The notes: a model not told the origin generated them from the sequence alone. DNA of 64,000 nt from an uncultured Victivallales bacterium (GCA_964607765.1 CAZSNT010000021.1:10837-74836); one strand, 5' to 3'; counted from the first letter of the stretch, positions 6,001-30,000 are shown. Numbers and translations are program-made.

Positions 6001-9000
6001 GCCGTCCTGCAGGAATGCGCCACCCAGGCTCATGTCAGCGGCAGACGCAATGTCGAGCAGGCCCGCGTTGGTGATCGTCACCGTACCGCCGTTGCCCGCC
6101 GTGAGCGTGTCAACCGTGCTGTTGAGCGTCACCGTGTTCGTGGTCAGAGCCAAGCCGACGCCGAGCAGCGCCCGGAGCGTGAGCGGCGCGTCGAACTGCG
6201 TGTCACCCGTACCGGCAAGCTGCGTGATGCTGTCCGCCGTGACCGCGCCGGCGAACGTCACGTCCGCAGCCGTGCCGATGCCAATGCCGCCAACCGCGAC
6301 CGCGCCGCCGATGGCAGCGTTGAAGGTGATGTTACCCGTACCTGAGGCCAGGCCGATGCTCTCGGCGTAAGGCGTGGTGCCGTCGAGCGCGGCGTTGAAC
6401 GCGATGCTGCCGCCGGCCGCGTCGCCCGTGGACAACGCAACCGCGTGCGCGTCAGTCAACGTCGCCGCGCTCTGGAAGGTGATGTCCGCGCCGGCCGTGG
6501 TGATGTCGCCCGCCGTCTGCACCGTGCCCGCGCCGTTCTGCAGGAAGGCGCCGCCCAGCGTCATGTCCGCGCCCGGCGCGATGTCAAGCAAGCCGGCGTT
6601 GGTGATCGTCACCGTGCCCGCGTTGCCGCCGGTCAACGTGTCGATCGTGCTGTTCAGCGTCACCGTATTCGTGGTCAGAGCCAGGCCGACACCAGCCGAT
6701 GCAGCCAACACGACGGGGCCATCGAGCTGCGTGTCGCCCGTGCCCGTCTGTTGCGTGATGCTGTCCGCGGCAACTGCGGAGTCCGCAGTCACATCAGTCG
6801 CGGAGGCGATGGTCACATCGCCCACCGGCGTGGCGTCGCCGACAATGCCGTCAAAGTCGACATTGCCTTCCCCAGCCCGAAGCTGCATGTCTTCGGCGTT
6901 GGCCGTCGTACCGTCCAACGCCTGGGAGAACGTGATAGTCGCGCCGGCGGCCGACGCGTCGCCATTTGTCGTATCGAAGAGCACAGCGTGCGCGTCTGTC
7001 AGGACAACATCGCCGCCGAACGTGATCGTGTCGCCGCTGGTCACGATGTCGCCCGCGGTCTGAACCGCACCCGCGCCGTTCTGCAGGAATGCGCCGTCCA
7101 ACGTCATGTCCGCGCCCGGTGCGATGTCGAGCAGACCGGCGTTGGTGATCGTCACCGTGCCGCCGTTGCCCGCCGTCAGCGTGTCGATCGTGCTGTTCAG
7201 CGTCACCGTGTTCGTGGTCAGAGCCAAGCCCACACCGGTCGACGCAAGCAACGTCACCGGTCCGTCGAACTGCGTGTCGCCCGTACCGGCATCCTGCGCA
7301 AAGGTGTCCGCCGTGATTGCGGAGTCCGCAGTCACATCCGCGGCGTTCGCAATGCCGAGGCCGCCCAGCGGCACGGAGCCGCCGACAACGCCATCGAAGT
7401 CGATGTTGCCCGTGCCCGCCGCCAGACCGAGATGCTCGGTGTAAGGCGTGGTGCCGTCAAGTGTAGAGCCGAACGTGATGGTGCCCAGGCCCAGGCCGGT
7501 TGTGAGGGCCACGGCGTGCGCGTCAGTCAGCGTCACGGCCGCACCGAACGTGATCGCGTCACCGGCCGTGGCGATGTCGCCGGCGGTCTGGACCGCGCCC
7601 GCACCGTTCTGCAGGAACGCGCCGCCCAGTGTCATGTCCGCGCCCGGCGCGATGTCGAGCAGACCGGCGTTGGTGATCGTCACCGAGCCACCGTTGCCTG
7701 CGGCCAGCGTGTCGATTGTGCTGTTCAGCGTCACCGTATTCGTGGTCACCGCCAGGCCGACGCCAGCCGACGCACGGAGCACGACCGGGCCGTCGAAGCG
7801 CGTGTTCGCCAGCCCAGCCTGCTGCGTGATGCTGTCCGCAGCAACTGCGGAGTCCGCAGTGACGCTGGCAGCATCGACGATGAGTACGTCACCTATCGGG
7901 ACGAGGCCACCGACCACGCCGTCGAAGTCCACGTTGCCCAGACCGGCGGTCAGCGTCAAGTCTTCGGCGTACGGCGCGCTGCCGTTCAGCGTTGCCATGA
8001 ACGCGACCGTGCCGCCGACCCCACTGCCCGTGCTGAGCACGACCGCGTGCGCGTCGGTCAACGTGACCGCGCTCTGGAAGGTGATGTCGCGGCCGTTCAT
8101 CACAATGTCGCCCGCGGTCTGAACCGCACCGGCGCCGTCTTGCAGGAACTTGCCGTCCAGACTCATGTCCGCGCCCGGCGCAATGTCGAGCAGGCCGGCG
8201 TTCGTCACCGTGACCGTGCCCGCGTTGCCGCCGGTCAGCGTGTCGATCGTGCTGTTCAACGTCACCGTGTTCGTGGTCAGGGCGAGGCCGACACCGGCGG
8301 ACGCCTCCAACACCACGGGGCCGTCGAACTGCGTGTCGCCCGTACCGGCCTGCTGCACAATGCTGTCCGCGGCAATTGCGGAGTCCGCAGTGACGTCCGC
8401 GGCAAGCGTGATCAGCAAGTCGCCCAGTGCCGCAGTGCCGCCGACCACACCGTCGAGGTCAACGTTGCCCAGTCCGGCGGTCAGGGTCAGGTCCTGACTG
8501 TGGGCCTGCGTACCGTCGAGGGTCGAGCCGAAGGCGATCGAGCCGCCGACTGCGTCGCCCGTGGTCAAGACGACCGCGCCGGTGAGTGTGACCGCGCCCA
8601 GGAAGGTGATGTCGTCGCCCGTAGTCGTGATGTCGCCGGCCGTACGGGCAGCCCCGGCGCCGTTCTGCAGGAACGCCCCGTCCAGGATCATGTCGGCGGC
8701 GATATCGATATCCAGCAAGGTCCCGACCGTGATGGTGACAGTGCCGTCGTTGGTCGTTGTCACCGTCTTGTTGAGTGCGACGGTGTCGGCGCTGATCGCC
8801 ACCGGACCGTCGATCCGGGCCTCGCCGTTGAGCGTCACGGTCCCGCTCGCGGCGAGCACGGAGAACGCATTCAGGTCCAGCGTGGCAGCACTGGTCGGGA
8901 AGTCAACATTCCCAGCCGTGGCAACCGTCAGGTAAGCCGGCTCGGTCTCGTCCACACCGACGCTGCCGTTGAAGGTCACATTGCCCGTTCCGGCCGTGAC

Positions 9001-12000
9001 CGTCAGGCTGTGGTCGTCGGCAAGTGCAGTACGGATGTCCGCCAGACTGACAGCACCGTCGTTCGTCGTTATCCGGCGATCGCCGGTCAGGGTCAGCGTG
9101 GACTGCGTGATCGTCACGGCAGACGCCTGGCCCGTGGTCTCGATGTCGTTGCTCAACACCACGTCACCGGCGCCGTTGAACAGCACGTTGCCAGCCGCCG
9201 TGATCTTCGCACTGACCGTTGCCGCGCCCGTATTCGTCACGGTGACGGCGCCGGAGGTCGTGCCGGTGACCGGAGCGTTGAACGTTGCCGTACCAGCTGT
9301 TGTAACGGTCAGATCCGCGGCATCGAGCGCCAGGCCGCTGCCGGCCAACTCGAAGGCGGCGGCGCTGTTGATGACCACATCCTCGGTCGACGCGGTGGCG
9401 GCCGAGCCGGTGGTGATCGTGGTATCGGCAGCAGCGGTCGTGCCGACCGTGACAGTCGCCTGCGAGGCCGTGTTGGCCATCGAACCGGCCGTTGCGGTCA
9501 GGGCGACCGCCCCGCCGCCGCTGACAGCGCCGGCAGCACCGTCGAACAACAGGTCGTTCCCGGCCGTGACATTGATCAGTCCGGCGCCCGTGGTCTGCAC
9601 CAACGCACTCAGCAGCACATCGCCCGTGGTGCTGTCAATGTCCATCTCGCCATCAGTCGTCTGCACGCCGGCATTCACATCCACGTGCCGCGCCGCGCTC
9701 AGCGTGAGCTTGCCGTTCTCGGCGGATACTGTCGCACCTACCACCAAGTCAGCGGCCGCCCCCGTGGTCTCGGCTGCGAGCGTGATGGTGCCCGCACCAG
9801 TGGTCGCCACCGCCTCACTGACGGTGAGCGACCCGTTGACCGTCCGCTGTGCGATGTTGCCGCCGCCTGCTGTGTGCCCGGCCAGCGAGCCGGCGGCGGC
9901 AGACGCCGTCGTCGTCGCAGCCGCGTTGACGCGCGCGATCTGAACGGTGCCGACCGTGCCGATGACCACAGCCGTGGCATCCGCCACGTACATGCTGCCC
10001 GTTCCCACGCTGCCCGCAATGGTCTCGACCTCGGTCTCCACTTCGTTGTCCGCGGCGCCGATGCCGATCCCCGCCGTCAGCCGCACGGAAGCGGCCGTTA
10101 CGTCGCTGGCAGTGTCGCCGGCGTTGGCGGCGTCCGTGATGCTGCCGCTCTGTGCCGCGACCCGGACCTCGCCCCACGAGGCTTGTGCCGCGCCGGTGCT
10201 CGCGTCGAGCAGGCCCAGGATGACGCCCTGCCCTGCCTCGTAGCTGATGTTGCCGCCCGTGCTCGCGGCCGAAGCTGTCGCCGCCATCGTGATCGAGCCG
10301 ACCGCAGCGAGTACGTCAATCGTGCCGCCGGCAGTCTGGATGTGTCCGGCTGCGTTCTGGGTCACGTCGCCGGTGGCCAAAACGGAGATGCTGCCCGCGT
10401 CGGTGACGGATACGGCGGCGTTGAGCGTGACGTCGCGGTCGGCGCCTTGTGCCTGCAGCAGAACATTGCCGCCGCCTGTCGCGCTGACGCCGACTCCGTC
10501 GCTCGCTGCGCCGGCGATCTGGTCGTTGTAGTCGTCAACCGTGATGCTGCCGCTGTCCGGTGTCGTGCGGAGCACGATCGAGCCGCCGCCGGTGGTCGTC
10601 AGGTCGCTCTGCGGCCCGGCAGTCACGGGGCTCAGGGCGTCGTCCGTGCCAACCTTCTGTACGGTCACAGTCACCGTGCTGACAGTGACATCGTCCGCTT
10701 CGAGCAGGTTGATGCCGCCTTGTCCGGCCACGGCCGTCACCACGTCCACAGCCGTATCGAACGGCTCCGACGTCGCCTGGCCGAGGGTGCCAATGCCAAG
10801 CTCGGCATCCAGCAGCAACCCCGCCGCGCTGACGTCGACGAACGCCTCGCCACCGTCCAGAATGCTGCCGTCCTCGGAAATCAGAGCCACGTGGCCGGCG
10901 CCGGCATCGACCCCGCCCACGGACACGTTGCCCTTGGCCTCGAGCCGGACATTGCCGCCCGCCGTGACCACGGTCGTGCTGTCAGCCATGCCGATCGCCC
11001 CGGCCACCGCGTCCAGAAGCACGGAGCCGCCCGCCGTCGTGATGCTCACCGTACCCGCCGCGGCTCCGATCACGCCGGTCCCGTCATTGTCCGGGGCGTT
11101 GGTCGCCGCAACCGGGCCGTCCTGCATGTCGTTCACCGCGGCGATGACTGTGGCAGCCCGGGTGATGCCGCCGTGGATGGCCACGGTCACGGTGCGTGTA
11201 CCGGCATCGTAGGTCGCCACAGCCGTATCGGCGGCCACGTTGGTCGTGTCCTCGACGATGCGGACCACAAGCCCGTTCTGCGCCACGCCGCCCGCGGTCG
11301 TGACAAGGGCGATGTCGTTGTCCAGTCCAGCCGACTCGAGGAGCGCTGCAGCCGGGATCGCCTCCATCCCGCTAGCCGCGACGGACGCGACGGCGCCGGC
11401 CGCATAGACCAGACCGGAGCCGTCGTTCGGCGCATCCACCGTGTTGTCCAGCGCGGCAGTGAACGTGCCGTCGGCATTGATTGCCGCAACGATCGCGTTG
11501 GCGTCCGTTTCGCCCACATTGATCCCGATTGTGAGGGTGGTGGAGTCGGCGTCGTAGGTTACGTCCGCGTCGTTGCCCGTCACCGGGGCGTCGACCAGCA
11601 GGAGGGTAATGGTATCGCTGTTCGGGGTGGCGCCGGCCCAGGTCACGCGCACGTCATTATTTGTACCGAGCGCATACAGCACGGCGCTGTTGGTGAGCGT
11701 CACGCGGCCCAGGTGAGCCTGCGCTGACACCAAGTTGCTGCCGTCGTTGTCCGCATCACTCGTCGTGTCGAGCGTCGCAGTGAACGTGCCCTCGGCGTTG
11801 ACAGCAGCGACCACGGCGTTGGCGGTCGTCTTTCGCGGCTCGATTGTCCCCGTGCCGTCGTTGTCCGCGTCGTTGGTCGTGTCCAGCGTTGCAGTGAACG
11901 TGCCCTCGGCGGTCACGGCAGTCACCACTGCAGCGGCTGTGGTCACGCCGGGATTGATGCCGATGGTCAACGTGTTGCCGGCTTCGTCGTAACTGACAGA

Positions 12001-15000
12001 GGCCGTGTCGCCGACCAGTTCGGCGTCGGTGACCAGGAGGAGTCTGGCGTCGTTGTAGGCATCGCCGGGCACGGTCGACTCGAGCAGGATGTCATTGTCC
12101 GCGCCGGTCGAGGCGAGAACGACGCTGGCGGCAACAGTCTCAGTGCCGTTCGCGAAGACCTCAATGTCGCCCGTGCGCACGGTATCACCCGCATTGACCC
12201 TGATCACGAGCGCCCTGGTGAGCGCGTCGTAGGCTACCTGAGCCGTGTTGCCGGTCACCTGCGGATCGTCCAACACCAGAACACGAACGCCGTTGTAAAC
12301 GTCGCCGGGCAGGCCGGACTCGAGCAGCACGTCATTGTCTGCGCCGGCCGAGGTGACGACCACGGCGGATGGTGCACTGAGGCCGCCGCCGGTCGTGACC
12401 AGTGCGTCGGTCATGCTCACCGGATCGTCACCTGCGATGTCCGCGTCCGGATCCAGCGCCACGCTGCAGCCGTGCGCAGGATTCACGGTGCCGACTGTGC
12501 CGCCGGTCGTGACATCCTCGAACGTCGTGGCGGCGAACGTGCCGAGCCCGCTGTTCACATCAGGATCGTACAGAGACGCGGCGAACGGGACATTGGCTGC
12601 GTCGTCGTTCACGGCATCGATGACCTGGAGCGCCGTCGAGCCGTCGGTGCCGAACTCGATGCCGATTGTGAGCGTGTTGGTGCCGGCGTCGTAGGCGGCA
12701 GTCTCGCTGCCCTTGTCCGCAGTATCGGTGAACACGACGTTCAGACCATTGTAGTCGGTGCCGGCCGTGTCGGCCGTGAATGTGAGCTCATTGTCGGCGT
12801 CGGCGGGGTCAATCGTGCCTTCGGCAACGCTGGAGTCGCTGAACCGGCCGCCGCTGGTCACGCCGCTGAACGTCTCGGCTGCAAACGTGCCCGAGCCGTC
12901 GTTGTGACCGGGGTTCATCAGCGACGCGGTGAACGGCACGTCCGCGCCGCCGTTGACAGCGGCGATCACATCGAGGGCTGACGAGCCATTGGCACCGGCC
13001 TCGATGCCGATAGTCAGGGTCTTGGTCACGGCGTCGTAGGCGGCGGTCTCGCTGCCCTTGGCTGCGGCGTCCTCGAACACGACCGTCAGATCGTTGTAAG
13101 CGCCGCCGTCGGCTTCGGCCTCGAACAGAACACTGTTATTGGCCCCGAGCGGATCGATCCAGCCACTCGCCGCGGCCGCGGCCATCGTCGAGCCGCCGCT
13201 GGTGACATCGGCAAACGATGTGTCGGCGAACGTGCCCGAGCCGTCGTTGTTGTCAGGATCCGTCAGCGAAGCAGTGAACACGTTGCCCGCTTCCGCGTTG
13301 ATGGCGGCAACTACTTCAGCGGCAGTAGACCCGGTCGAACCGAACTCGATGCTGACGGTCAAGCGGTTCGCGCCCGCGTCGTAGACAGCCGTCTCGCTGC
13401 CCTTGGCCACGGAGTCGACCAACACAATCTCCAGCCCGTTGTACGTCTCGCCGTCAGCATTGGGCACAACCGTGATCTCGTTGTTCTCACCGACCGGGTC
13501 GATGGAGCCGGCAGCCGCAGCCGGCGACTGCCCGACAGCGGCAATGATCTGGTCCGCGGTGGTGACACCGTTGTTGATGGTCAGGGTGAGGGTCCTGGTC
13601 AGTGCCGTGTAGGCAACACCGGGCGCGCCGTCGCCAACGGCAGAGTCGTGGGCCAGGAAGACATTCAGGCCGTTGCCTGCCAGGCCCGGATCCAGCGTGG
13701 TGAAGAGCAGCCCGTTGAGGACAGCTTGCGCGTACGTCGCATCGAGTCCACCGGACAGCGTCACGGCCACCACATCAGCCAGCGGCACCTGCTGAACAAT
13801 GTCCCGCGGCGCGATGACCGTGACGTGACCGTCGGCCGTTGTGATGTCCTCGGCGATGTGAACATCCGCGTCAGTGCCGACAGCCTGGAGCCGGACATTG
13901 CCGCTGCCGCTGATCGCGATCCCGGCCTCTCCGGCGGCGACGGTCAGGCTGCCGGCCGTCGTGCTGACCAGGACGCTGCCCTCGCCATCAACGTGCGTCT
14001 GGGCCAGGCGCGCCACGGACAGGTCGTCGCGGGCGCCGTCGAGCTGGGTGACCACGATGTCACCCATGAGCCCGGTGTTCGTTGCCTCGAGAACGGACAC
14101 GTCGACATCGATGTCCTCGTCGGCTGTCACAGCACCCACGCCGCTCGCAGCGGAAGCCGTGAACCGGCCGGCCGTAACCACATTCGCACCCTCGGCAGCC
14201 GTGCCGTCGGTGATCGGACCATTCGCTGCGGTGACCGAGACATCCCCGTCAGCGCTCTGCAGCACGGACAGCGTCACGCCCTGACCACCGGAGTAGCTCA
14301 GCGTGCCGGAAGCGGTCGTGGTCGTTACGCCGTCGGCCATTTCGAGCAGTCCCGCGGCCGCTGTGACGGATACCGCGTGGGTGCCGGTCGCCTGTATCGA
14401 GCCGTTGATCGTCTGCGTCACGTTGTTCGCCGCATGGATGCTGATCGTGCCGCCGCTCACGCCGGTGTTGACCGTTACGTTGCCGGAACCGTCCGTGCCG
14501 GCCGAGACGTCGATCCGGTCCGTGGCCTCGACTGCGGCGTTCATAACGACATCCGCCGCACTGGTCAGCGTAACCTGACGCGGCGGGTCAATGGGCCCGT
14601 TGATCGTGACCGTACCTGCCGCGGTGACCGTGAAGTCCACACCGTCAAAGGCCAGGCCCTGTGCACCGAGCGTGAAGGCGCCAAGGCTGTTGACCACAAT
14701 CGCCTGGGTCGATGCCGTCGCCTTGCTGCCCGTGCTCAGCACGATGTCGGCTGCGCGGGTGGTGGCCATGGTCACCGCAGCGGCGGATGCCACGTTGGCC
14801 AGCGAGCCACTGGTGGCAGTGACCGTCAGCGCGCCGCCGCTCGACAACTGGCCGGACACGGCACTGGCGGTACTGGTGCTCGCCACAGCGATGATGCCCG
14901 TACCGTTCGGATCGAGCGCGACGTTCAGCGTCGCCGTGTAGGGCAGTCCGGCAACCGCGTTGATCGCCGCCACGACCGTAGTCGACGTCGTCTGCCCCGC

Positions 15001-18000
15001 ATTGACCGAAATGGTCAGCGTCCGCGCTGCTGCATCGTAAGCCGCCGTCCCTTCGTCATCGGTCAGGTTGCTGTCGTCCACGACGCTGACAGCCAGGCCG
15101 TTGTGAGCGGCGCCGACGCCGTCCGACGTCAGTACAACCGCCGCATCGCCGGCATCCGTAAGCAACAGGGCGTAGGCCACGCCGGCGGTATCGAACAACA
15201 CGTCGTTGCCGGCCACCACGTCAACAGCGCCACCCAAACTGCTCACCGGCGCGCCGATCGTCAGAGTCCCGCCGGTCGCATCGATGTCAGCTCTGCCCGC
15301 AGCCGTGCTGACCGGCGCATTGACATCGACGCTGCGCGTGGCTGTCAGTGCCAAACGCCCGGCGAGCGCCGTGACAGGCGCGTTCACAACCACGTCGGCG
15401 TCGGCAGCCAGTGTCCGCAGCATCACCAGCCCGGCCGCTTCACCCGCAGCCACTGTGGCGGCCGTGTCAATGATGCCTGCCCCACTGTTGCCGGGAGCCG
15501 GGGCCGCGACGAACGGTGTGCCGGCTGCGTTGATGAGACCGATGAGGGCGTTGGCAGTCGTCGCACCATTGACGACCTTCAGAGCCAAGACTTTGTTCAC
15601 GGCATCGTAGGGCAGTACGGAAGCGCCGGTGCCGTCGTCCACCAGGATAATCGTGACGCCGTTCAGAGCATTGCCGGCGGTTGCGGCAGTCAGCAGCACA
15701 TCGTTGTTCGGTCCAGCCATCGGGATAACACCGACCGCGGCGATCGCGTCGACGCCGCCCGCCGTGACGACAGGCAGCGTGTGAACCGTGCCCGCACCCG
15801 TGCTGACCGCCACATTCGACGCGGTGAACGGGATGGTATTGCCAACGCTGTTGATCTCGGCGACAATCGCATTCGCATCGGTCACGCCGCTGCTGATGTT
15901 GATCGTGAGCACGCGATCCGCCGGGTCGCTGTCGTCGTATACGGCCGCCGCATCGTTGCCGACGACGGTGCCGTCGTCAATGATCCGGATCGTCACGCCG
16001 CTGAACTCGGGCGACGCGCCCTCGGCCTCGAGCCGGATGTCGTTGTTGTCGCCCAGCGGCGTGAGCGCGGCCACTGCGGTATCGGACACGCCGCCAGCGG
16101 TCAGGACCGGTTCGGGCGCCGTGACCGTACCCAGCCCGCTCTCGCCGTCCAGCAGAGCGCCAATGAACGGGATGTCGAAGCTGTTCGGCCCGGTGTTGAG
16201 TTGGTCGAGTACGGTCTGTGTCGTCGTGACGCCGCTCTGAACCTTGATCGTCAGGATCTTCTCGGTCACGTCGTACGTTGTGGACGCCGCGCCGTTGGTC
16301 AGCGCCGCGTCGTGTTCCAGCACGACCTGGGCGTCGTTCAGGCCCTCGCCTGCGGCGCTCGCCTCCAGCTCGAAGTCGTTGTTCATGCCCTCGAGCGTGA
16401 TCGTGGCGGCCGCCACTTCCGTGTCCGTGCCGCCCGATGTCAGCACCACGTTGTTCTGAACTGTGCCGGACCCGTCGTTGCCGGTCTCGATCGCGGTGTC
16501 CAGAGCCGCCGTGAACGTGCCTTCCGCCTGGACCGCAGCGATTATGGCGTTGGCGTCCGTCACGCCGGTACTGATCCGGATCCTCAGGAACTTGTCGTCC
16601 GCATTGTAGATGGCCGTCGCCGAGTTGTCCGTGATGTCGTCGCTGTGCGCGAACTGGATGGTCACACCGTTGTAGTCCGTGCCGGCGGCGGCGGCCGTGA
16701 TGGTCAGATCATTGTTGTCGCCGGGCAGTCGTGCCGCTGCAGTGGCTGCGACGTTCGTGACCGATGTGGTCGCGGCCGTGTGGATCGTGCCCGAGCCGTC
16801 GCTGCCGGCGGCGTTGGCAGCCGTGAACGGAATGGTTGCGCTGTTCGCACCGGCGTTGACCTCGCCGATGACAGTCGCGGCCGTAGTAACGCCGCTGTTG
16901 ATCGTGATGGACAACGTCGAGCTCCCGGCGTCGTAAGCCGCGGCAGTCGTGTCGCCCGTGAGGCTGGCATCGTCGAGATAGCGGATCGTTACGCCGTTCG
17001 CCGTGACGCCGGCCGTCTCGGCCGTGAACACGATGCCGTTGTTGTCGCCCAACGCGTCGAGCGTGGCCGTGGCCGAGACAGCGTCCGCCCCACCCGTCGT
17101 GACGAGCGCGCTGCCGGTCACGGCGCCGTTGACCGTGATCGAATCGGCTTGGGTCTCCAGCACGATGCTGCCCGACGCCGTCGCACCGAGCCCGGTCTGT
17201 TCAGCGTCCACAGTCGGTGTGGTCAGCCCGTTCGTGCCGACGCGGTTGACGGTGACCGACACGGCGCCCACCGTGATGGCGGCGCTATTGGTCACGGCAA
17301 TCCCGCCAGAGCCGGCCGACGCAGTGAGCAGCGCGACGGTCGTGTCCAGCGCATCAGCGACGGCTCCGAACTCACCGACACCGATGCCCGCTGTCAACCG
17401 TGCTTCGGCCGCAATCAGGTCCACATCCGAGTCGCCGCCATCGGTGACCGAGCCGTTGACGGCAGTCACGCTGACCGCACCCGCACCGGCGTTCAGGCTG
17501 GCAACGGCAATGTCCGTACCGGCCCGGTAGCGCACATCGCCGCCGCTGCTGGCAGAGCTGGTGCCGTCGGCCATGGCGATGCCCCCGGTCGACGCTTCGA
17601 CGTCGATCGTGCCGCCCACGGTTGTCACGTTCGCGCTCTGAGTGACGGCGTCTGCTGCCCGTACGCTGATGCTGCCGGTGGCGCTCTGAACGGCGGTATT
17701 GAGTGTGACGTCGCTGCCCGCGCCCTGAGCCAGAAGCAGGATGTTGCCGCTGCCGTGCGCGTTCACGCCGAGCCCCGCGGCCTGCGAGCCGTCGTTGATC
17801 GTGATCGAGCCGTTGAGTGTGGCAAGCACGATCGAGCCGTTCGCCGTGCTGGTCAGATCGGACTGGGCAGCAACATCCGAGACGGCCGGTGCGACGGCCG
17901 AGCCGTCCTGTGCAACGCGCAGTACGTCCACAGGCGCCACGGTGTCGACGCCGACATTCGTCGCATCTTCCAAACTGATCCCGCCGCCGCCCGTGGTGGT

Positions 18001-21000
18001 GGCCGCAGTGACGGTGACGGCCTCGGTCTCGACAGCGTTCGCGGCCGCACCCAGCGCACCAACCCCGGCTCCCGCACTCAGACGCAAGCCGTTGGCGTAG
18101 ACGTCGACAGTGTCGGCCCCGAGAGCCCCGTCACCGTTCGCATCGTGGAAGTAGACGCCTGTCTGACTGCCAAGCTCGAGACCCGCGATCTGGTAGCCGT
18201 TCCCGCCATCGTGGATCCGGGAATCCACATCGGCGTCATACTGCCCGGAGACGCCGCCCGTCGCGTCCAGCCACAGATCCTCGCCTTGCGTGTAAAGCTG
18301 GTTGCCGTCCGCGTCGTAGTAGTAGAGGTTCGTCTGCAGGCCCTGTTCCGGACCGACGACCTGGGTGCCGTTGCCGCCGTCGAACAGGAGCGTGTCTATG
18401 CCATTGTCGTATCGTGCCAGCCGGCTTCCGAGCTCGTCACGCCAAACGTCCTCGCCCACAGTGTAGGCGCTGTTGCCGTCGGCATCGTGGTAGACGACGA
18501 GCGTCTGGATGCCGGCCTCAGGCGTGATCACGTAGCCGTCGCCGCCGTCGGAGAGCTGCGTGTCGATGCCATGGTCGTACTGCCCGACCGTGCCGCCCGC
18601 CTCGTCACGCCACGCATCTTCGCCCGTGCTGTAGAAGGTGTCCGCGTCCGCGTCGTAGTAGTAGACGCCGGCCTGGGAACCGTCTTCGCCGCCCGTGATC
18701 TGGTAGCCGTCACCGTCGGCGCTGATCTTGACGTCGATGCCATCGTCATACTCTCCGGCCGTGCCGCCGCCCATGTCCTGCCAGAGATCCTCGCCGGCGG
18801 TATGGACCTGATTGGCGTCCGCGTCGTAGTAGTAGAGCCCGCCCTGACTGCCCTGCTCCGGCCCGATCTGGTAGCCGTTGCCGCCGTCGTACACGCGCGT
18901 GTCAATACCATGGTCGTATTGCCCGGCCGTGCCGCCCGCCTCGTCGCGCCAGACATCTTCGCCGGTGGTGTAAGCGGCGTCGGCGTTGGCATCGTGGTAG
19001 TAGAGTCCGTCATTGCGCCCCTGCTCGGCGCCGGCGATCTGGTAACCGTCGCCGCCGCCCAACACGAGCGCGTCCGTGCCGTCGTCGTACAGTCCCGCGC
19101 GGCTGCCCGCCCCGTCGCTCCAGATGTCCTCGGTGTCGTCGTGGGCTCCATCACCGTCCGCATCGCGGTAGTAGAGCCCGGTCTGGATCCCGGTCTCGGC
19201 ACCAGCAATCTGGTAACCGTCGCCGCCATCGGTCAGCTTGGTGTCGACGCCGTCGTCGTAGCGGCCGGCCGTGCCGCCCGCTTCATCGCGCCACACATCT
19301 TCGCCGGCAGTGTGCACGCCGTCCTGGTTCGCGTCGTGGTAGTAGACACCGGTTTGGATGCCCTGCTCGCCGTCGGCGACCTGGACGTCGTCGCCACCGT
19401 CGTGGACCAACGCATCAACGCTCTCGTCGTAGACGCCGACCGCAGCGCTGCTGCCGTCGCTCCAAATGTCTTCATCAGTCCCCGTCCCGGCGTCGCGGAT
19501 TGTGCCGGATGCTGCGATGACGGCCACGCTGCCCCAACTCGCCTGGGAGGCGGTCGTGCCCGCGGCCCTGTCCGCGGCAGTGCGTGCGTCCAGCGTCCCA
19601 AGCACAACGTCATCGGCAGCCGTGACGCGGATGTTCGCGCCGTCCGTGCGGACGAGGGCGGCACCTTCCATGCGGACGCTGCCGGAGTCGCCCGTCATCC
19701 CGGCCTGCATGTCGACTGTTCCGGAGCCGGCCGTAGCCACCACGCTGGCGGCTGCCTGGTCGATGTTGTCGGCGGACAGGACGGAGATGCGGCCCGTCTC
19801 CGAGCTGACGCCGGTGTTCAGTGCGATGTCCGCAGTGCGACCAGCAGACGCGGTCTGGATCAGGACGTTGCCCGTGCCGTCCGCGGCGATGCCGGCACTG
19901 TCGGCCGGCGCCGTGCCGTCGTTGACCGTGATGCTGCCGTCAACTGTACGGAACACGATCGAGCCGTTGCTGCCGTCGCGCGTGACCAAGTCGCTCTGGG
20001 CTGCGGCATCTGCCTCGTCCTGCGTGGTGCCATCGGCGAGCAGGCGCACGACCGGAACCGTGCCGACCGTATCGACAGCGACATCGTTGGCGTCGACAAG
20101 GTTGATACCGCCCGCGCCGGCAGACGCGGTCAGCGTGGCGACGTCGGTCTCGACGGCGTTCGCACTGCCGCCGAGAACACCGACGCTGGTGTCGGCGTAG
20201 AGGCGCAGCGCCGCGGCGTACACGTCAACGACGTCGTCTGCTGCGCCATCCGTGATGGAGCCGCCGCTCGCACGCAGACTCACATCGCCCCAATCGGCCT
20301 GGTCGGCGCCGTCACGCGCATCGAATAGCCCGACCGTGATGGTGGTATCAGCGACGTAGCGGATATTGCCGCCCGCGGTCACGGCGCGTGCGCCGGAACG
20401 CATCTCGATCGCGCCGGAGCCCGTTTCCACGTTGATGCTGCCCGTGCCGGCGGTGATGATGTCGCCGTCGGCCATCTGCAGCACGTCATGCTCGGACAGC
20501 ACAGTGATGTGTCCGCCCTCGGACTTCACATCCGCGTTGAGCTCGACATCGTGGGCGGCGCCGACCGCCTCGAGCAGGATGCCGCCCGTGCCATCAGCGT
20601 AGACACCCATGCCGTCAGCCGGCGCTGCGCCGTCGTTGACAGTGATTCCGCCACCCGCAACACCCGTACGCAGAACGATCGAGCCGTTGCTGCCGTCGCG
20701 CGTCACCAGATCGCTCTGACTGGCAGCATCGGCGTTCGCGCTGGCAATGGCGTCGCGGGCAACGCGCTGGGCTTGGGCCGTGCCGACTGTGTCCACACTC
20801 ACGCTGCTCGCGTCGAGCAGGTTGATACCGCCCGCGCCCGCCGAAGCACTGAGGACGCGTGCCTCGATGTCGACGGGGCTGTCTACGCCCTCGCCCAGCG
20901 TCCCGATCGCCGCGCCCGCGTAGAAGCGAACGCTGTCAGCGTAGATATCCACGACCGTGTCGGCTTCCGAGTCGAGGATCGAGCCGCTGTCGGCGCGGAC

Positions 21001-24000
21001 ACTCACCTCGCCCCAATCAGTCTGCGTGCCGCCCAGACGCGCGTCCAACTGGCCGAGCGTGACGGAACCGCCGGCGCGGTAGCGCAGGTTGCCGCCGACC
21101 GTCGTGGCGGTCGCGGCGGTGGCCATATCGACCGAGCCGGCCGTTGCTTCGACATCGATCGTGCCGGCGCCGGTCGTGGCAATGTCGCCGGCGGCGGCCT
21201 GTGTGACATCGTTGGCGGCAATGACGGTGACATGTCCCGTGCCGGAGACGACTGCCGCGTCGAGGGTGATGTCCGCCGTGGCGCCGGCGGAGGCAGCCTG
21301 CAGCAAGACATTGCCCGCGCCGTGCGCGTTGACGCCGATGTCGTTACCAGGCGTTGTGCCGTCCGACACGGTGATGGAGCCGTTCACGCTGCGCAGCACG
21401 ATCGAGCCGTTTGCCGTGCTGATCAGATCGCTCTGCGCGAGCGGTTGCTGCGCGCCGTCTTCGTCACGGATCGTGCTGCTGCCGCCGGTCTCATTGCTGC
21501 GTTCTACCGCCACGGACGACACGGTGCCAACCGTCACGCCTGTCGCATCAACAAGGCTGATGCCACCGCCGCCGGAGGTGGTCTGCGCTGCGATCGTGCC
21601 GACCTCCAGATCGATGGCGTCAGTGCCCGCGCCAAGTGCGCCGATTGCCGTCCCGGCAGTGAGACGCAACTGGTAGGCGTAGACGTCCGTCACGCCGTCG
21701 TCATAGAGCCCGGAGGCGTCGGCATCATAGTAATACAGGCCTGCCTGCGCGCCGTTCTGCATGCCGCTGATCTGGTAGCCGTCGCCACCGTCGGACAGCG
21801 GGGTGTCGGTACCGTTCTCGTAGACACCCTCCTGGCCGCCCGCCTCATCGCGCCAGATATCGTCGCCTTCGGTGTAGCCGTCAGCGTTCGGGTCGTAGTA
21901 GTAAACGCCTGTCTGAGTGCCCGTTTCGCCGCCACTGAGCTGATAGCCGTCGCTGCCGCCAAACACAGGCGTGTCGATGCCGTGGTCGTAGACGCCGGCT
22001 GTGCCGCCGTCCTCGTCCACCCAGAGATCTTCCTCGCCGGTTCCGGCAGCATCAGAGATGGTGCCGTTCGTGGCGATGATCGCGACCAACCCCCAGTCAG
22101 CCTGTTCGGAGAGCGTGCCGACAGCGCGGTCTGCGGCGGTCCGCGCATCGACCAGTCCAAGCTGCACGTTGTCCGCCGCCTCCAGGCGAATGTTCTTGCC
22201 GTCAGTCCTGACGATGGCCGCGGCTGCCATGGTCAGGTGGCCGGTACCATCCGTACCCGCCTCAACGTCAACTGTGCCGCTGTCCGTCGAGATCAGGCCG
22301 TTGAGCAGTACATCATCGCTGCCCAGCACGGAGATGTCACAGCCGCTGCTGCAGACCAGATCCTCGACCGTCAGCGTGCCGGCAGCCCGATAGAGGATGT
22401 TCCCGGTCTCGGTCTCGCCACGCGTACCGTCAGCCATTGTCAGGGCGCCGTTCAGGGCCTCGACGTAGAGGAACCCGGACGTCGCGCTGATGTCCGCGTT
22501 CTGCGTCACGGCGCGCGCGCTGCGGAGCGTGATGCCGCCGCTGCGGGAACTGATCGAGCTGTTCACGACGACATCGCGGTCCGTACCCACGGACTCGACC
22601 CAAGCGCTTCCCGTGCCGGCGACGCTGACGCCACTGCCGCCAAGCGTGATACTGCCGTCGTCCGTCTTGAACACGACCCCACCCGTGCCGTCCACATTGG
22701 ACTGTTCCAGGCGTGTGACGAGTGCATCGCCGCCCACACGCGTGATGACGATGTCGCCGGCCGTACCAGTGTTCAGCGCACTGGTCTCGGGGCTGTCGAT
22801 GTCCAAGTCGCCGTGGTCGCCGGCCGTGGTGCCGAGGCCGGACACGGCCGTCAGCGTAACTGTAGCCGCAGTGATATCCGCTGCGCCGTCGAGAGCCGCG
22901 TCCGTCACGGCGCCGCTCGACGTCAGAACAACGTCGTTCGAGCCCGCGTCCACAACGCCGACCGCAGTGCTGCCGGCGCTGACCGTGATATCCCCGTCCG
23001 CCGTGGTGACGCTCGTGAGAGTGACAGCGTCCGTCTCGGTCAACTCGATGTCGAAGCCGTCCGCCGCGCCCGTGTCGCCTGTTGTCTCGGCGGTGACTGT
23101 GTCGACGGCCGTGTTCAGATCGATCCCTTTCGCCGCCGTCGCAGTCAGGTCCGCGCCGCTGATCAGCCCCGTGCCCTCGGTCTGATCGATCCGGCCGTAG
23201 GTCGCCGTCAGGTCGACCGCGCCGACGGCGGTCACGGCGCCGTCGGTGAGTGTGATATCGCTGAGTGCCTGCACAGTCACGGAACTGCCCGCGCCCGTAC
23301 CGGCCAACGCGCCGCCCTCGAAGGTAACGTCGCCTGTTCTCGCCACGCCCAGGACCGTATCCGGCGCCGTTGCGGAGCCCGTCACGAGGATGTTGTCCGC
23401 GTAGACCCGGAGCTGCTCCGGCAGCACGGCCAGTCCGATCTCCGCATCGCCTTGTGTGCCAGGATCGTCCGGACCGGCGACTGCCGAGGCGACGAAAACG
23501 GTAACCGGGTCGCCGTTCTGGTCAACCGTGGCGTCGGTGATGGCGTTCACTATCTGGGAGCGCGTGCTGGCAGCCGTTCCGTCCACCGCCTCGGTCAGTT
23601 GAGCCGTCACTGTCAGTGTCCGGTTCACCGTGTGGAACACAGACGTTTCCGCACCGGCAGCTACACCGTCAACCACGACGACTGAGACACCGTTGTAGTC
23701 GGCGTAATCGGCGGCGCCCACGTTCTCGGCCGTGACAAGCACGTCGTTACCGGCGCCGGAGAACTCGAGCGTTGCGGTGGCCGCCACATCGTCCGCGCCG
23801 TTGGCTGTCTTCGACCCGATCACGGTCTCGAACCTGCCGACGCCGGCGGTGTAGTCCAGACCGGCAGTTGCGATGAGGGGGCCGGTGCCGTAGGCATACT
23901 CTCCGCCACCACCGTTTACGTCGATGCTGTGGTCCGTGACTTGGTCGCGCACGGTGACCGCCCGGGTGTTGTCCAGGTCGACCTTGATGGTCAGGATCTT

Positions 24001-27000
24001 GGCGACGTCGTCGTAGTACGCCGCCGCGATGTCGCCGCTGACCGTGCCGTCGTCCACGATCTTGATGATCACGTCGTTGAAGGCGGTTCCCTGCCCGCGC
24101 GCGGTGAACACCAGATCGTTGTCGCTGCCGGGCGAGACGATCTCAACGACGGCCGACGTCAGGTCAGACGCCCCGGCCATGCTCACAGGCATCTGGTCGG
24201 GAGCCCAGCCGATCACCACTCGCGCGAAGCCCTCTGCCAGCGCGGCCAGATCGGCAGTGCCAAGGTCGAGCACGCCCGTGTTGAGTCCGGCAGCGCTGCC
24301 CACCTTGATCGGGGTAACCGGCGAACCGGGCCGCAGCGTGATGACGCTGGTATCGGCAACGGACGCGGACACGGTGTCAACGCCGCCGACGAAGTCGATC
24401 TCATCGGCTGAGAAGGTGAGATGCCCACCATTGACCGAGACCGTGCTGTCGAAGCGCAGTTCCGGCGCAGTCAGATCGGCGGCGCCGACGGTCACAGCGC
24501 CGTCGAAGTGCGTGGACCCAGCGCCCCATGCCTGCGTCAGTGTACCCGTCACGGTCACGGCGCTGTTGAACCGGACCTGGTCAGCTGCCACGATGGTCAC
24601 GTTGCCGCCGCTGGTGACAGCGCCGTCAGCGGTGAACGTGCCGGCGTTGCCCATGTCGATCGTGATACTGCCGAGACCCGACGTCTCCACATCTCCGTGG
24701 AAGACGACCTGGGACGATGCGGTGATGGTCACCTCACCCGCGTTAAGGTCCTGAGCCGGGCTGCCACCTGACAGCGGCTTGCCGATCTCGACCGTACCGG
24801 TGGCCGACTCGATCTTGAACTCGCCGGTCAGGGCGATGCTGCCGTAGATCGTGACGTTGTGCGCGGACCGGATGGTAACGGACTCGAGGGGGACGGACGA
24901 GCCGATGTCGCCCTGGATCACAATGTCGCCCGTGCCGGCATTGAGGACCAGGTGCTCACCCTCTTCCGGGTCGCCGGTGAAACCGTCGATGTTGCCCTCG
25001 ATCAGGATGCGGCCGCCTTCCGGGCCGGTGTCGAGGGTGAGCGTCTCACCGTCCGACAGCACGGCGCTGTCGTCCATGAGGATATCGTCCGCATTCGTGT
25101 AGGTGCTCCCGCCCTGCCAGACCGTAGTGCTGAACGACCCGATCAGATGAACCGTGGCGTTGTTGCGGGTACTGAACGTACCGACAACCGTGATGCCGCC
25201 GCCGAGCTTGGGCGAGCGGATGGTAACCGAGTCGCGGAACGCGTAGGTCCCTACCTCGACATCGTGGCGTCCGTCCGCACGGCCGATCGTGATGCCGTCC
25301 ACGCCGTCGACCACGTCATCGGCGAACCCGTCCATGAGCAGGTCGAGTTCGCTGCTGTCCAAGCTGAAATCGCCTGCAGCGCCGTCGCCGACGCCGATGC
25401 TCTGCAGCACGTTGAGCGGCTGCAGCGTGAGCGTGCCGCGGTCATCGTCGTGGCCGCCGACCGTGCCGCCGTACCAGCTGCGGACTTGCGCGTCGATATC
25501 AATCGAGTCGGTGGTGAGGATGATGTCGCCGCCGCCAGCTTCGATCACACCAGCAACCTGAAGTACGCCGGACAGGTTCCGGACCTCGATGTCGCCGCCG
25601 CCGGTGGTCAAGCCGTTGATGGTCACACCGTCCACTTCGGTCACATGAATGACCGCGGCGCCCGCGGTGGTGACCTGGATCGTATCGACCTGAGTGACGA
25701 TCGGCTGCGCAGGCGAGCCGAACCCGCCCTCCACGACGACGGTCAGGTCCTCAGCCCGAATCAGTGCCAGGTCGCCGGCGCCCTCGGTGACGTCGAGAGT
25801 CTGCGGCACGGTGATCAGCGAGTCACCTGTCAGACTCACTGAGTTGGCCTGGAGCTGAGCACGGACCAAAATCGACTTCGCCTCCAGGCTGACCGTGTAG
25901 TCGGCTGCCCCATCGTTGAAGCGGTCGACATCGCCGGAAACGGTAACCATACCGAGCAACTCAGCACCGTCCTTCAGCGAGACGGCCAGGTTCTCAATCG
26001 ATGTCAGGTCGATCGGCACGCTGTCCCACGTGAAGACGTTGCCCGCCATCTCGACGGTCGTTGACGTGTCGCGAGTCAGTTGCAGGCTGTCTTCCTGGGC
26101 TGTACCGATGATGGCTTCGATGCTGTTCACGTTGTGGTCGACGGAGTTCGCGCCGGACGTGGTGCCGACGCCCAGATCCACGGCAACAGCAGAGGACACG
26201 GCCGAGAAGTCGAGGGTGTCTGAACCGCTGTCGGTCACAAGCTCGTTGACCGTGTCGTCGCCCCAGCCGTCACTGAAGATGAACGTGTCGCTGCCGGTGC
26301 CGCCGCTGAGCACATCGTTGCCTGCCGCTCCCTGCAGCGTATCGTCCCCTGCCCCGCCGTAGAGCCGGTCCGCGCCCGCGCCGCCGTTCAGCGTGTCGTT
26401 GCCGATGCCGCCCGCGGCCAGCACAGGTACGCTGATGCCGGTGCCGATCGTGAGCGCATCGTCGCCAATACCGCCGTCGAACAGGATTGCAGCGATGTCG
26501 GCGACCGCGAAATCGTCGGACGCGTCGAAGGCCTCGACCCGGATCGTGTCGCCGCCCGCGTTCTCGGTGAACACACGCGCAGCCACGTTACCGCGACGCA
26601 GCGTGAAGGTCTCCGCCACATCCACGCCGCCGCCGATGGCCAGTCGGTTCCAGGCGAAGGCGCCGGCGCTGAGCACGAGGGTGTCGCCCGCCAGACCGGT
26701 GAACGCCGTGCCGTCTTTCGCCGTGATCGTCGCGTCGTCCACAATGTGACCGAGGGAGTGCCCGTCAGGCGCCGGGTTCGTGTCAAACGTGCTGCCGTCC
26801 AGGCTGAGGAACGTGAGTTCCATGAGCTCGCCGATCGCGCTGATGTCAGTGATCCGGTTGTGGTCCGCACTCAGGCGGGTGAGACTGATCGGTTCTTTCA
26901 GGTCGTCGAGGTGCGTGATGTCTGTCTGGAACGCGTTGTGCCCCGTGGCGCCCGGCAGCACGAACAGACGCGTGGGACGCTGGGTGGCCGCGCCGTTGCC

Positions 27001-30000
27001 GAGCCAGCCGGAGTGATTCGCAGGCGACGTGTCGTAGGCGTAGTCGTTGTCACCTTCATCGAAGGACCAGCGCCCGATCAGGTCATCGGTCCGGAGCGAT
27101 GTTTGGTCAGCAGCCACCAGCGCAGCCGTCAGGTCGTCTTCCCAGATCCGCACGTCGTCGAGGACGCCACGGAAGTGCGGGTTGTCGGCGTCGCGCGCGA
27201 AGCCGATGGCGAGGCCTGTTTGCGAGAGCAGATTGGAGCGTTCCTGGGTGTTCTCGCTGGCCCTGAGCACGCCGTCGATGTAGAGGGCTTGGCCGCCTTG
27301 CCCGACACCAAGGGCGTCTGCGCCAAACACATACGCCACATGATGCCACTGACCGTCGGCCAGGCTCAGGCCGCTGGACTGGATGGACGTGCCGTTAAGT
27401 TCGGCACTGATGTTGCCGTTGCTCAGCATGATATTGCCCGTGCTGTCGTTGCTGCCCAAGACCCCATCGACGATGGAGAACAGGCCGAACGATGTGCCCC
27501 CCGGCAGGTTGGCGGGGGCCAGGAAGCGGAACGTGACCGTGAACTTGTCCTCGGGCACATTGACCGTCACGCTCACCACGTCGTCGTTGCCGTCGAAGAC
27601 GAGCGCACCGGCGCCGTTGTGGTCAACTGACAGATTGACGAGCTGGTTCAGCCCGGTCGACACGCCGGTCTGGGCGTCATTGGCCGGCTGCAGCAATGCG
27701 AAGTCCGCAACGCGGTTCCCGTTCAGGTTGAGGGTTTGCGCGTTGCGCGCGAACTGCAGCCCGGTCAGGTCGACGATGCCCAGGTTGTCCAGCTGCAGGT
27801 CGATGAGCGTGGTCATGTCGCTGACACGTATGGCCTCTCCCACATACGGCCGGCCCAGGTATGACGTGGTGACCGGGGTATCCAACGCCTCGGCAATGCC
27901 GGCGCGGAGTGCGTCATCGGGGATGTGCACCTGCGGATCGATCGATGTGAGCGGTGTGTTGCTGATGTGTGCGGTGGGCGGCAGGATGAAGCGTTCGTAG
28001 GCCGCGAGATCTCTGACTTCCTTCGGCTCGGCCACGAACGTGTCCTCGCCACTCTCGCCGTAGAGCTGGTCGTGATCGCCGCTGCCGAGGATGGTGTCGT
28101 CGCCGTCACCGCCATGGATCTCGTCCAGGTCACGGTCCGGGTGCGCGGTGCCCGCCGTGGGCACATCCGCGGTGACGGAGAACGCGACATCGGAGACATT
28201 CCCGGTAGTGCGGTAGAGCACCTGTCCGGCATCAGCTTCAGCAACGAAGAACAAGACACCGTCGGCCGCAACGAGCTGACCGAGTGCGGTGGCGTCGAGC
28301 AGGCGCTGCGAGCCGGCTTCAGTACCGTTGCTCATCCAGAGCGCGTTGCGCGTGGTGGCTACGAAGACAGTGCCGCCCGCAGCGACGAGCGTGTCCGCCG
28401 CAGAGTCCAGCGTCACGACCGGCACGGTGCCTTCCGCCGTCCCGTCGCTCTTCCACAGCACATCGATGTTGCCCTTGGCCACGTGGAAGTACGCTGTTGT
28501 GCCGACCGCTGCCAGTTCGCCGGCCGTCCCGTTGAGTGCCCGAACCAAGGCGGTGCCCGCAGCCGTACCGTCGCTCTTCCACAGCTCGTCGCCGTCGATC
28601 ATCAGGAACAGGTTCTCGTCGACAGTGGTCAGGCCGGTGACCTCGTCGGGGAGCGTCCTGACGAACTCGAGCGAAGCACCGTCGGTGCGCCACAACATGG
28701 GATACGTGGCGTTGGCCGTGATGAAGTAGAGCGAGTCGGCGAGTACTGTTGACAGCCCAATCGCGCCGGGTGCATCATCGACAACCCGCTGCGCCGTGGT
28801 GGCACTGCTGGTCCAGACCTCGTAGGCGTCGGCCCCCGTCTTGACCGTGAAGTGCAGCACATCACCTTCGGCTCCGAGCAGGTCCGCCTCACCGACGAAG
28901 CCCGTCTGGACCTGGCTGGTGCCGCCGAGCGTGCCGTCCGTCACCCAGAGCTCCACGCCGGTGTTCACCACGGTGAAGAACAACTTCCCGGCCGCCGTGC
29001 CGAGCAAGTCGCCCTGGGCTCCGGCCAGGCCGGCCCCGGGCACAACGGCATCGATGCTCTTGAGCAGTGTGGCTTCGGTGTCCTCGCCCTCGCTCTGATC
29101 GTGCCGCCAAAGCTCCAGCTTGTTGACGCCGTCGAACACGGTGTAATACACGGCGCCGTCGAGGGCAACAGCATCGTCGGAATCGCTCGTGCCGAGATTC
29201 AGCGTCGTGACCGCGCCCGTGCCGGAGTCGTTGCTCTTAAACAGTGCCCCGTCCACGGTGAACAGCAGTGTGCTGCCGGCGGCCACCAGGCCCTGCGGGG
29301 CAGCACTGAAGGTGTCGACTGCAGCGGTGGTGGCCAGCGTGCCTTCGCTGGACCACAGTGCGTTGCCTACCGTGAAGAAGAGCTTGCCGCCAACGGCGGT
29401 CAGGTTCTGGGCCGCGCCAACGGTGGCGACCTCGACAGCGAACACGCCGTCAGACACCCACAAATCCGTGTTGACCAGGAAGAACAGGCGCGTGTCCACG
29501 GGTGTAAGGTCGGTGATGGATGCGCCGATGGAGGTCGCGCTGTCCTGCTGCGTGATCTCGACCGTGCTGACGCCGTTGCTGCGCCAGAGCGCGCTGCCGC
29601 CGATGGTGAAGAACACGTTGTCGCCAACGCTGACCACGCCGGCGGGCTGCTCCAACGTGCTGCCGGCGGCATCGGTGACCGTGTCGACAGCCACGGTGCC
29701 GGCGGGATCATAGACCTTCAGGTAGTACGTGCCGCCTTCGAGGCGCGTCAGATCAAAGATGGATCGTCCCTCGGCAACAACGCCGCCGCCCTCGTTGTAG
29801 AGTGTCCCGAGCACGCCGGTCTGCTCGCCGAGCGTAGCCTGCACATTGACCACGCCGGCAGAGGCCGTGCCGCTGCGCGAGAGACTGATCTGCGTGGCAC
29901 TGGTGAGGCGCAGCGTCATCCAGGTGAGACCGTCCGCCAGCAGCGCCCGGACGGCGGTCGTCAGATCCGCCTCACCTGTGCCGGGCGGAACGCGGAACGT

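Follow-up and report, generated by a model that had tools for sequence, protein, structure and literature searches.

A 56–57-residue tandem repeat outside current family libraries in a giant surface protein of an uncultured Victivallales bacterium

The stretch of DNA analyzed here (the window; 64,000 nt from an uncultured Victivallales bacterium, GCA_964607765.1 CAZSNT010000021.1:10837-74836) encodes on its minus strand two arrays of a Tyr/Asp/Gly-rich tandem repeat. Judged by its sequence, the repeat is rare and is undescribed in Pfam-A 2025, NCBIfam 2026, and the PDB, the three libraries used. It is carried as a module by a giant, adhesin-like, RTX-rich surface protein. The explanation favored, with moderate confidence, is that of an uncatalogued all-β unit of 56–57 residues, rigidified by Ca2+. 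In giant proteins that are secreted or located at the cell surface, it would act as an extender and perhaps also provide a face for binding.

The repeat arrays and their family assignment

Stop-free translation of positions 18000-19599 on the minus strand displays the consensus reported for this region by an initial annotation of the window, with a typical unit reading GLYYYDADANQVHTAGEDLWQDMGGGTAGEYDDGIDVKISADGDGYQITGGEDGSQA. That annotation had placed eight units at 18105-19480, which is essentially right: a hidden Markov model (HMM) of the unit resolves array 1 into an N-truncated unit, seven full units (E 1e-26 to 1e-31 per unit), and a 16-residue C-terminal stub, or ~8.3 units. The second array, announced at 21.69-22.04 kb, is real and comprises a truncated unit, a full unit, and a stub (~2.3 units). 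Both arrays are free of Cys, as described. The exact 168-nt period does not hold, since the full units, cut at the (L/V)YY.DA anchor, are 57, 57, 56, 57, 56, 57, and 57 amino acids (aa) long, corresponding to 171 or 168 nt, and Tandem Repeats Finder (TRF) reports a period of 171 with 5% indels. The elements of the two arrays, all delimited by the unit HMM, are as follows.

18112..19494 (aa 14836-15296), minus strand: array 1; unit HMM E 1e-20 to 1e-31, TRF period 171
19351-19494 (aa 14836-14883), minus strand: N-truncated unit of array 1
18160-19350, minus strand: block of full units of array 1
19180-19350, 19009-19179, 18841-19008, 18670-18840, minus strand: full units 1-4 of array 1
18502-18669, 18331-18501, 18160-18330, minus strand: full units 5-7 of array 1
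18112-18159, minus strand: C-terminal stub of array 1, 16 residues
21682..22053 (aa 13983-14106), minus strand: array 2, ~2.3 units; unit HMM E 9e-17 and 1e-19
21910-22053, minus strand: N-truncated unit of array 2
21742-21909, minus strand: full unit of array 2
21682-21741, minus strand: stub of array 2

The units share 56% identity at the protein level and 66% at the DNA level, and different codons are used at 36% of the identical residues. On the basis of this divergence, the array is regarded as old and selected; by the signature of its sequence, it consists of units under purifying selection and is neither a slippage product nor an assembly artefact.

The repeat had been described as unassigned, and the profile searches bear this out. 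Pfam-A gives no match on either array even at E ≤ 10. Scanned singly, 35 family members reveal no consistent Pfam family, with Imm75, Dockerin_1, and DUF7932 each matching 2 of the 35 at weak E values (at least 0.089 in the case of Dockerin_1). NCBIfam holds nothing for the repeat, and a sequence-profile search of the PDB returns chance matches only (cytochrome c at E 0.19, FrpC at 0.8). The exclusion of FG-GAP, RTX, and TSP3 by motif is likewise upheld by the profiles. RTX (PF00353; tandem GGxGxDxUx nonapeptides) does not match the arrays, though it matches other parts of the giant protein at 3e-63, and TSP3 and TSP3_bac (PF02412, PF18884) give no match on these Cys-free arrays; eukaryotic TSP3 is built of DxDxDGxxDxxD units joined by disulfides. 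FG-GAP, RTX, and TSP3_bac match other parts of repeat-bearing proteins but not the repeat itself. A strong match to the YD repeat family (PF05593) spanning the full unit, which would have overturned the assignment, was not found on the arrays at E ≤ 10.

The calcium-type loop and the predicted structure

Unit positions 6-17 constitute a 12-residue loop of the EF-hand type, D-x-[DN]-x-[DNS]-G-x-[YWF]-[DTS]-x-G-E. Column statistics were compiled from 340 units of 90 proteins, in which 269 loops are complete, and the conserved unit positions are listed below.

Positions 6-13: D6 97%; D/N8 87%; D/N/S10 96%; G11 67%; Y/W/F13 88%
Positions 14-22: D/T/S14 82%; G16 69%; E17 93%; W20 96%; D22 89%
Positions 31-54: Y/F31 97%; D32 81%; D/E36 89%; G42 85%; G54 90%

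Among the complete loops, the residue at loop position 1 is kept in all 269, that at position 3 in 255/269, and that at position 5 in 267/269. Position 8 is hydrophobic or aromatic in 252/269, E or D occupies position 12 in 260/269, and G occupies position 6 in 169/269. Positions 1, 3, and 12 are kept together in 247/269. The loop belongs to the Dx[DN]xDG/EF-type class, which is a class of motifs and not a homologous family; its linear pattern is D-x-[DN]-x-[DN]-G, with position 8 hydrophobic and an acidic ligand at position 9, position 12, or both. Dx[DN]xDG binds Ca2+ in a nearly identical manner in at least 12 unrelated contexts, including β-hairpin “calcium blades” (Rigden et al. 2011, PMC3123361). 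The repeat is not an EF-hand domain in the helix-loop-helix sense: DSSP assigns strands only and no helix to the confident structural model described next, and no EF-hand Pfam family matches.

The model was obtained with AlphaFold2 for a target of 3.4 units, using a 35-row alignment (A3) of family repeat windows.

18427..19008 (aa 14998-15191), minus strand: segment modelled with AlphaFold2 from alignment A3

It has a predicted local distance difference test score (pLDDT) of 87.6 and a predicted template modelling score (pTM) of 0.65; all five models fall within pLDDT 82-88, and 104 residues have a pLDDT of at least 90. The model is all-β with approximately five short strands per unit, at positions 2-5, 19-21, 30-31, 37-40, and 52-55. 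The EF-type loop is located between strand 1 (LYYY) and strand 2 (DIW). A Foldseek search with this model against the PDB and BFVD yielded no fold match and no propeller, so that the repeat corresponds to no recognizable solved fold and is possibly a new one. The fold searches also returned no RHS shell and no choline-binding solenoid. The initial suggestion of a Ca-stabilized β-hairpin stack or propeller is therefore retained in its first half, with which the hairpin-like strands and the canonical Ca-type loop agree. A closed propeller is unlikely, given that the arrays span ~1.4 to 10 units and that Foldseek finds no match.

The host protein, its stalk, and the relatives of the repeat

The minus-strand frame is free of stops over 1..63999 (21,333 codons; 63,999 nt open; read downwards, with the first base of each codon at a window position that is a multiple of 3) and runs past both window ends.

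1..63999, minus strand: giant open reading frame (ORF), supported by the open frame, the GC content at codon positions 1/2/3 (GC1/2/3), and Pfam domains

The GC1/2/3 values of 0.64/0.49/0.83 are of the coding type; the DNA has a GC content of 60-69% across the window and of ~67% at the repeat. The 21,333-aa product is abundant in G, A, T, D, and V and has only 9 Cys. It is absent from the protein database searched; genome_contigs yielded no near-identical sequence, and metagenome_contigs yielded no match to the C-terminal 500 aa of the window. Its Pfam matches include the RTX nonapeptide (PF00353, 3e-63) in 13 stretches and proprotein-convertase P-domains (P_proprotein) in four (best 3e-45), as well as FG-GAP, FG-GAP_3, PA14, InhA-like MAM, Laminin_G_3 (LamG_3), Cadherin_3, and Big_9. 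The 5,000-aa chunk around the repeat (window 5002-20001) is devoid of Pfam matches. Because one open minus-strand frame takes up the entire window, the repeat is a module of the adhesin-like giant.

The minus strand is assigned as the coding strand because of the open 64-kb frame, the coding-type GC3, the strong Pfam domains, and the finding that the plus-strand ORFs are exactly antisense to it. Every ORF that an ORF finder lists at a length of 250 aa or more lies on the plus strand in frame 0, exactly antisense to the real gene, with a GC1 of 0.83. Candidates such as 13648-20328, 43501-51402, 6445-11727, and others were thus dismissed as mirror images of the minus frame on the opposite strand. 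A gene caller applied naively could turn these shadows into 28 wrongly annotated plus-strand genes.

Array 1 and array 2 are both embedded in a second repeat. This stalk motif of ~85 aa occurs in ~11 copies between aa 12683 and 20996 (window ~1000-26000, minus strand), spaced ~240-300 aa or more apart, with the pattern DWG.VS.RA.SGSI.D....D.VVDVYA..LRL.AG..IG.LG...A.ET.V..L.A.AG.GGI.L.DA..V.V.TVG. It has no Pfam match and is itself an unassigned repeat family; its homologues are few and share 35-44% identity, and some are named “beta strand repeat-containing protein” by NCBI. Two stalk copies are split, with the N-terminal half (HMM ~2-35) preceding an array and the C-terminal half (HMM ~22-85) following it.

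19450..19554 (aa 14816-14850; SWGSVAVIAASGTIRD), minus strand: N-half of the stalk copy split by array 1, stalk HMM 2-35
17935..18132 (aa 15290-15355; DTVDVYANGLRLSAGAGVGALG...GGGGISLEDATNVGVDTV), minus strand: C-half of the stalk copy split by array 1, stalk HMM 22-83
22018..22110 (aa 13964-13994), minus strand: N-half of the stalk copy split by array 2, stalk HMM 3-32
21511..21699 (aa 14101-14163), minus strand: C-half of the stalk copy split by array 2, stalk HMM 25-85

Both arrays break the stalk at HMM positions ~22-35. They are entered at unit position 10 (...TG.EDIW) and left at position 16-19 (GVYFHDANGDG...DTVDVYA), and therefore the “EDIW” strand of the array and the “VDVY” strand of the stalk occupy equivalent positions. 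The sequences thus point to arrays spliced into the same stalk loop in one fixed register. An array may continue the stalk sheet rather than hang from it as a loose loop. The same array-to-stalk junction is present in a Tara Oceans (TARA) fragment, P0010.

Relatives of the repeat are few. A word-indexed search of 5.8 billion proteins returned four. When the unit profile A1 was run exhaustively with HMMER against 1.84 billion representatives, 89 proteins were recovered at E ≤ 1e-3, of which 39 reach ≤ 1e-10 and 12 reach ≤ 1e-30. Most of the 89 are surface proteins of several thousand residues (2,000-7,800 aa in many cases), and their arrays range from ~1.4 to 10 units. The closest relatives (P0001, P0010, P0011/P0115, and P0016) are short fragments from one mesopelagic Tara Oceans sample, TARA_085_MES, and probably all belong to a single orthologous giant gene that is broken up among them. 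This lineage has W instead of Y as its aromatic residue at unit position 46. The named sources are Kiritimatiellota, Candidatus Brocadiia, Lentisphaeria (two sources), a metagenome-assembled genome of Verrucomicrobia, and Thermodesulfobacteriota, most of which belong to the Planctomycetes–Verrucomicrobia–Chlamydiae (PVC) superphylum. The partner domains are extracellular and comprise SdrD_B, InlB B-repeat, FGE-sulfatase, PPC, FG-GAP, LamG_3, MAM, CARDB, cadherin, Big_9, RHS, TSP3_bac, and peptidase S8; in the Lentisphaerae relative, TSP3_bac is separate from the repeat.

The repeat is combined with RHS elements in P0003, P0004, and P0047. At the locus of P0003 and P0004 (L003 1-12424, ENA contig NODE_67, 176 kb), two repeat units are situated between a region of NNIFY-type motifs, by its sequence possibly a β-helix, and an RHS/YD region. 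Two further genes at this locus have RHS_repeat/TEN_YD-shell matches. On the P0004 contig, the repeat protein is interrupted by the contig end and lies within an RHS gene cluster. From this locus it follows that the repeat is also used in proteins of the polymorphic-toxin type.

Elsewhere in the giant protein, a region dense in RTX covers window 49000-63999 on the minus strand (aa 0-4999), and RTX recurs at aa 6449-6484 and 12530-12555. Such richness points to a protein that depends on Ca and is possibly exported by type I secretion; its C-terminal secretion signal would fall beyond the window. A cluster of other domains is found at window ~39500-43000 on the minus strand (aa ~6990-8150). It contains an FG-GAP propeller (aa ~6800-7620) that has seven loops of the form GD.DGDG..D and is interrupted by an InhA-like MAM domain, and continues with PA14/GLEYA and then P-domains (best at ~8030-8143; four stretches protein-wide). 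To judge from these domains, the cluster is probably a ligand-binding region of the giant protein.

Proposed mechanism, rival explanations, and known systems

The conservation of the EF-type loop, the precedent of Dx[DN]xDG, and the all-β setting lead to the proposal of a Ca2+-clasped β-meander. Each unit would form a short β-meander, the first hairpin of which is closed by the loop D6-x-[DN]8-x-[DNS]10-G11-x-[YWF]13-[DTS]14-x-G16-E17. The invariant aromatic residues Y3/Y4, W20, Y31, and Y/W46 would form a small core between the hairpins. Extracellular Ca2+ is abundant, at ~10 mM in seawater. It would lock each unit, such that a tandem array becomes a stiff rod of variable length; the fold is considered open-ended because the arrays of the relatives vary so widely in unit number. 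Within the host, the arrays would probably serve as extenders or spacers that depend on Ca and make the stalk longer or branched, while the conserved and partly exposed Tyr/Trp surface may bind a ligand such as a glycan. We infer the extender role, the ligand binding, and the rod geometry, as well as Ca2+ binding itself, from the repeat sequence and its context.

Several points weigh against this proposal. Loop position 6 is less well conserved, its G being present in only 63-67% of the units. An AlphaFold model of the full array from a 7-row alignment (A2) reached a pLDDT of 46 and was discarded as unusable. The rod geometry and the aromatic packing are read only from the secondary-structure string and the pTM. 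The blank Foldseek result may in part reflect the poor scoring of elongated repeat models.

One rival explanation takes each ~57-aa unit for a blade of an integrin-type β-propeller, of the FG-GAP/VCBS “calcium blade” kind but strongly diverged. The blade length of ~60 aa and the DxDxDG loop at the tip of a hairpin are similar, and genuine FG-GAP is present elsewhere in the giant protein and in several relatives, with FG-GAP_3 matching 1 of the 35 members at E 0.18. However, the FG-GAP/VCBS profiles (PF01839, PF13517) do not match the arrays at E ≤ 10, and when 31 blades of the FG-GAP type, taken from the repeat-bearing proteins themselves, were compared by hhalign, only 7 DxDGDG loop columns aligned, with a probability of 2%. 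The number of units per array is variable and non-integer, which does not accord with a closed propeller of 7 (or 8) blades, and no propeller was matched. A blade of this type is thus quite improbable. A divergent hairpin repeat of the YD/RHS or choline-binding type, folding into a spiral sheet or solenoid with aromatic ligand or cell-wall binding as its main role, is improbable as well. In its favor, “G.YD.G.D” and “LYYYDADG” loosely resemble the YD (YxYDxxGR) and choline-binding (WYYFDxxG) hairpins, the unit is highly aromatic, and three relatives carry RHS elements alongside it. Yet the period is 56-57 aa as opposed to ~20 aa, PF05593 and the CW_binding families have no match on the arrays, and the nearest results are Choline_bind_3 at E 6.8 on array 2 only and PF03527 “RHS” in 1 of the 35 members at E 0.15. 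P0003 carries a PF05593 pre-annotation, but as read from its sequence, the YD repeats of that protein (YSYDGAGRL...) begin well downstream of its array at aa 269-342. A division of the unit into two similar halves of ~28 aa, which would speak for this rival, was rejected as not significant (hhalign P 0.24), and the fold searches disclosed neither shell nor solenoid.

The arrays could also be an acidic, Gly-rich, flexible or low-complexity linker, or might owe their existence to misassembly or to translation of the wrong strand. The bias toward D, G, T, and A, the long antisense ORF on the plus strand, and the low confidence of the first full-array model are in line with this idea. It is nevertheless hardly credible: the aromatic and acidic positions are strictly kept across 90 proteins, conserved residues are encoded by diverged codons, and a deeper alignment gave a confident model. 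The minus frame, moreover, is open over 64 kb with a coding-type GC3 and strong Pfam domains.

The Ca2+-rigidified β-repeat remains the favored explanation, and a more far-reaching version of it can be formulated. The repeat would be a new Ca2+-clasped β-meander rod fold confined to giant surface proteins, chiefly of PVC and other uncultured marine bacteria. Its variable arrays would splice into β-helical stalks and act as Ca-gated, aromatic-faced arms for the polysaccharides of prey or particles. In this extended form the proposal is speculative and rather doubtful.

Giant bacterial surface proteins are largely unannotated, and the repeat offers an annotation handle for ~90 protein clusters; alignments A1 and A3 could serve directly as the basis of a Pfam-style family. 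The repeat also adds another all-β context for the Dx[DN]xDG/EF loop. A fragment of 3-4 units (~200 aa) is small and expressible and would be suited to the study of Ca-stiffening in giant adhesins of uncultured PVC bacteria. The mechanism itself is unsurprising, as giant adhesins are already known to use Ca-stabilized tandem repeats, the loop is known, and the role is familiar. The host gene, at >64 kb and open at both window ends, is noteworthy in its own right.

YD repeats are not known to have an EF-type loop. The YD/RHS family (PF05593) resembles the present repeat in its Tyr/Asp/Gly-rich hairpins and in the adjacency of RHS regions in a few proteins, but differs in its unit of ~20 rather than 57 aa and in its YxYDxxGR motif, which the repeat lacks. 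FG-GAP/VCBS blades have a comparable length (~57-60 aa), place DxDxDG at a β-hairpin, and occur in large extracellular bacterial proteins, including the same polypeptides. In contrast, the repeat has three more residues before the next strand, an E at loop position 12, and open-ended arrays, and the likeness is limited to the 7 aligned loop columns. The EF-type/Dx[DN]xDG loops (PMC3123361) are matched by a full 12-residue loop that is more than 90% conserved at the ligand positions. The repeat is distinguished from them by the absence of flanking helices, by a loop that joins two strands, and by a tandem unit of 57 aa that falls in no EF-hand or dockerin Pfam family.

In a study of giant bacterial genes, the longest predicted protein reaches 85,804 aa, and Omnitrophota are the group in which giant proteins are found most often; bacterial genes >64 kb are rare (West-Roberts et al. 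2023, bioRxiv 10.1101/2023.11.21.568195). All full-length examples of that study have numerous transmembrane regions, and most have divergent SecA/DEAD helicase domains (bioRxiv 10.1101/2023.11.21.568195). The host ORF shares with them its size of >64 kb, its adhesion-type domains, and its long unannotated stretches. It differs in that no transmembrane, SecA, or DEAD features were seen in the window, in its GC content of 60-69%, and in the affiliation of the repeat, whose named relatives come mostly from PVC bacteria.

The giant RTX adhesins MpIBP, LapA, and FrhA carry Ca2+-rigidified extender domains of the BIg type (Ig-like, ~100 aa). These are similar to the repeat in being tandem modules of variable number within giant, Cys-poor, RTX-bearing surface proteins and in the stiffening by Ca2+ that is proposed here. 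The repeat differs from them in its unrelated sequence, its shorter unit of ~57 aa, its other β topology, and the splicing of its arrays into a stalk module, so that they do not form the main chain of the protein.

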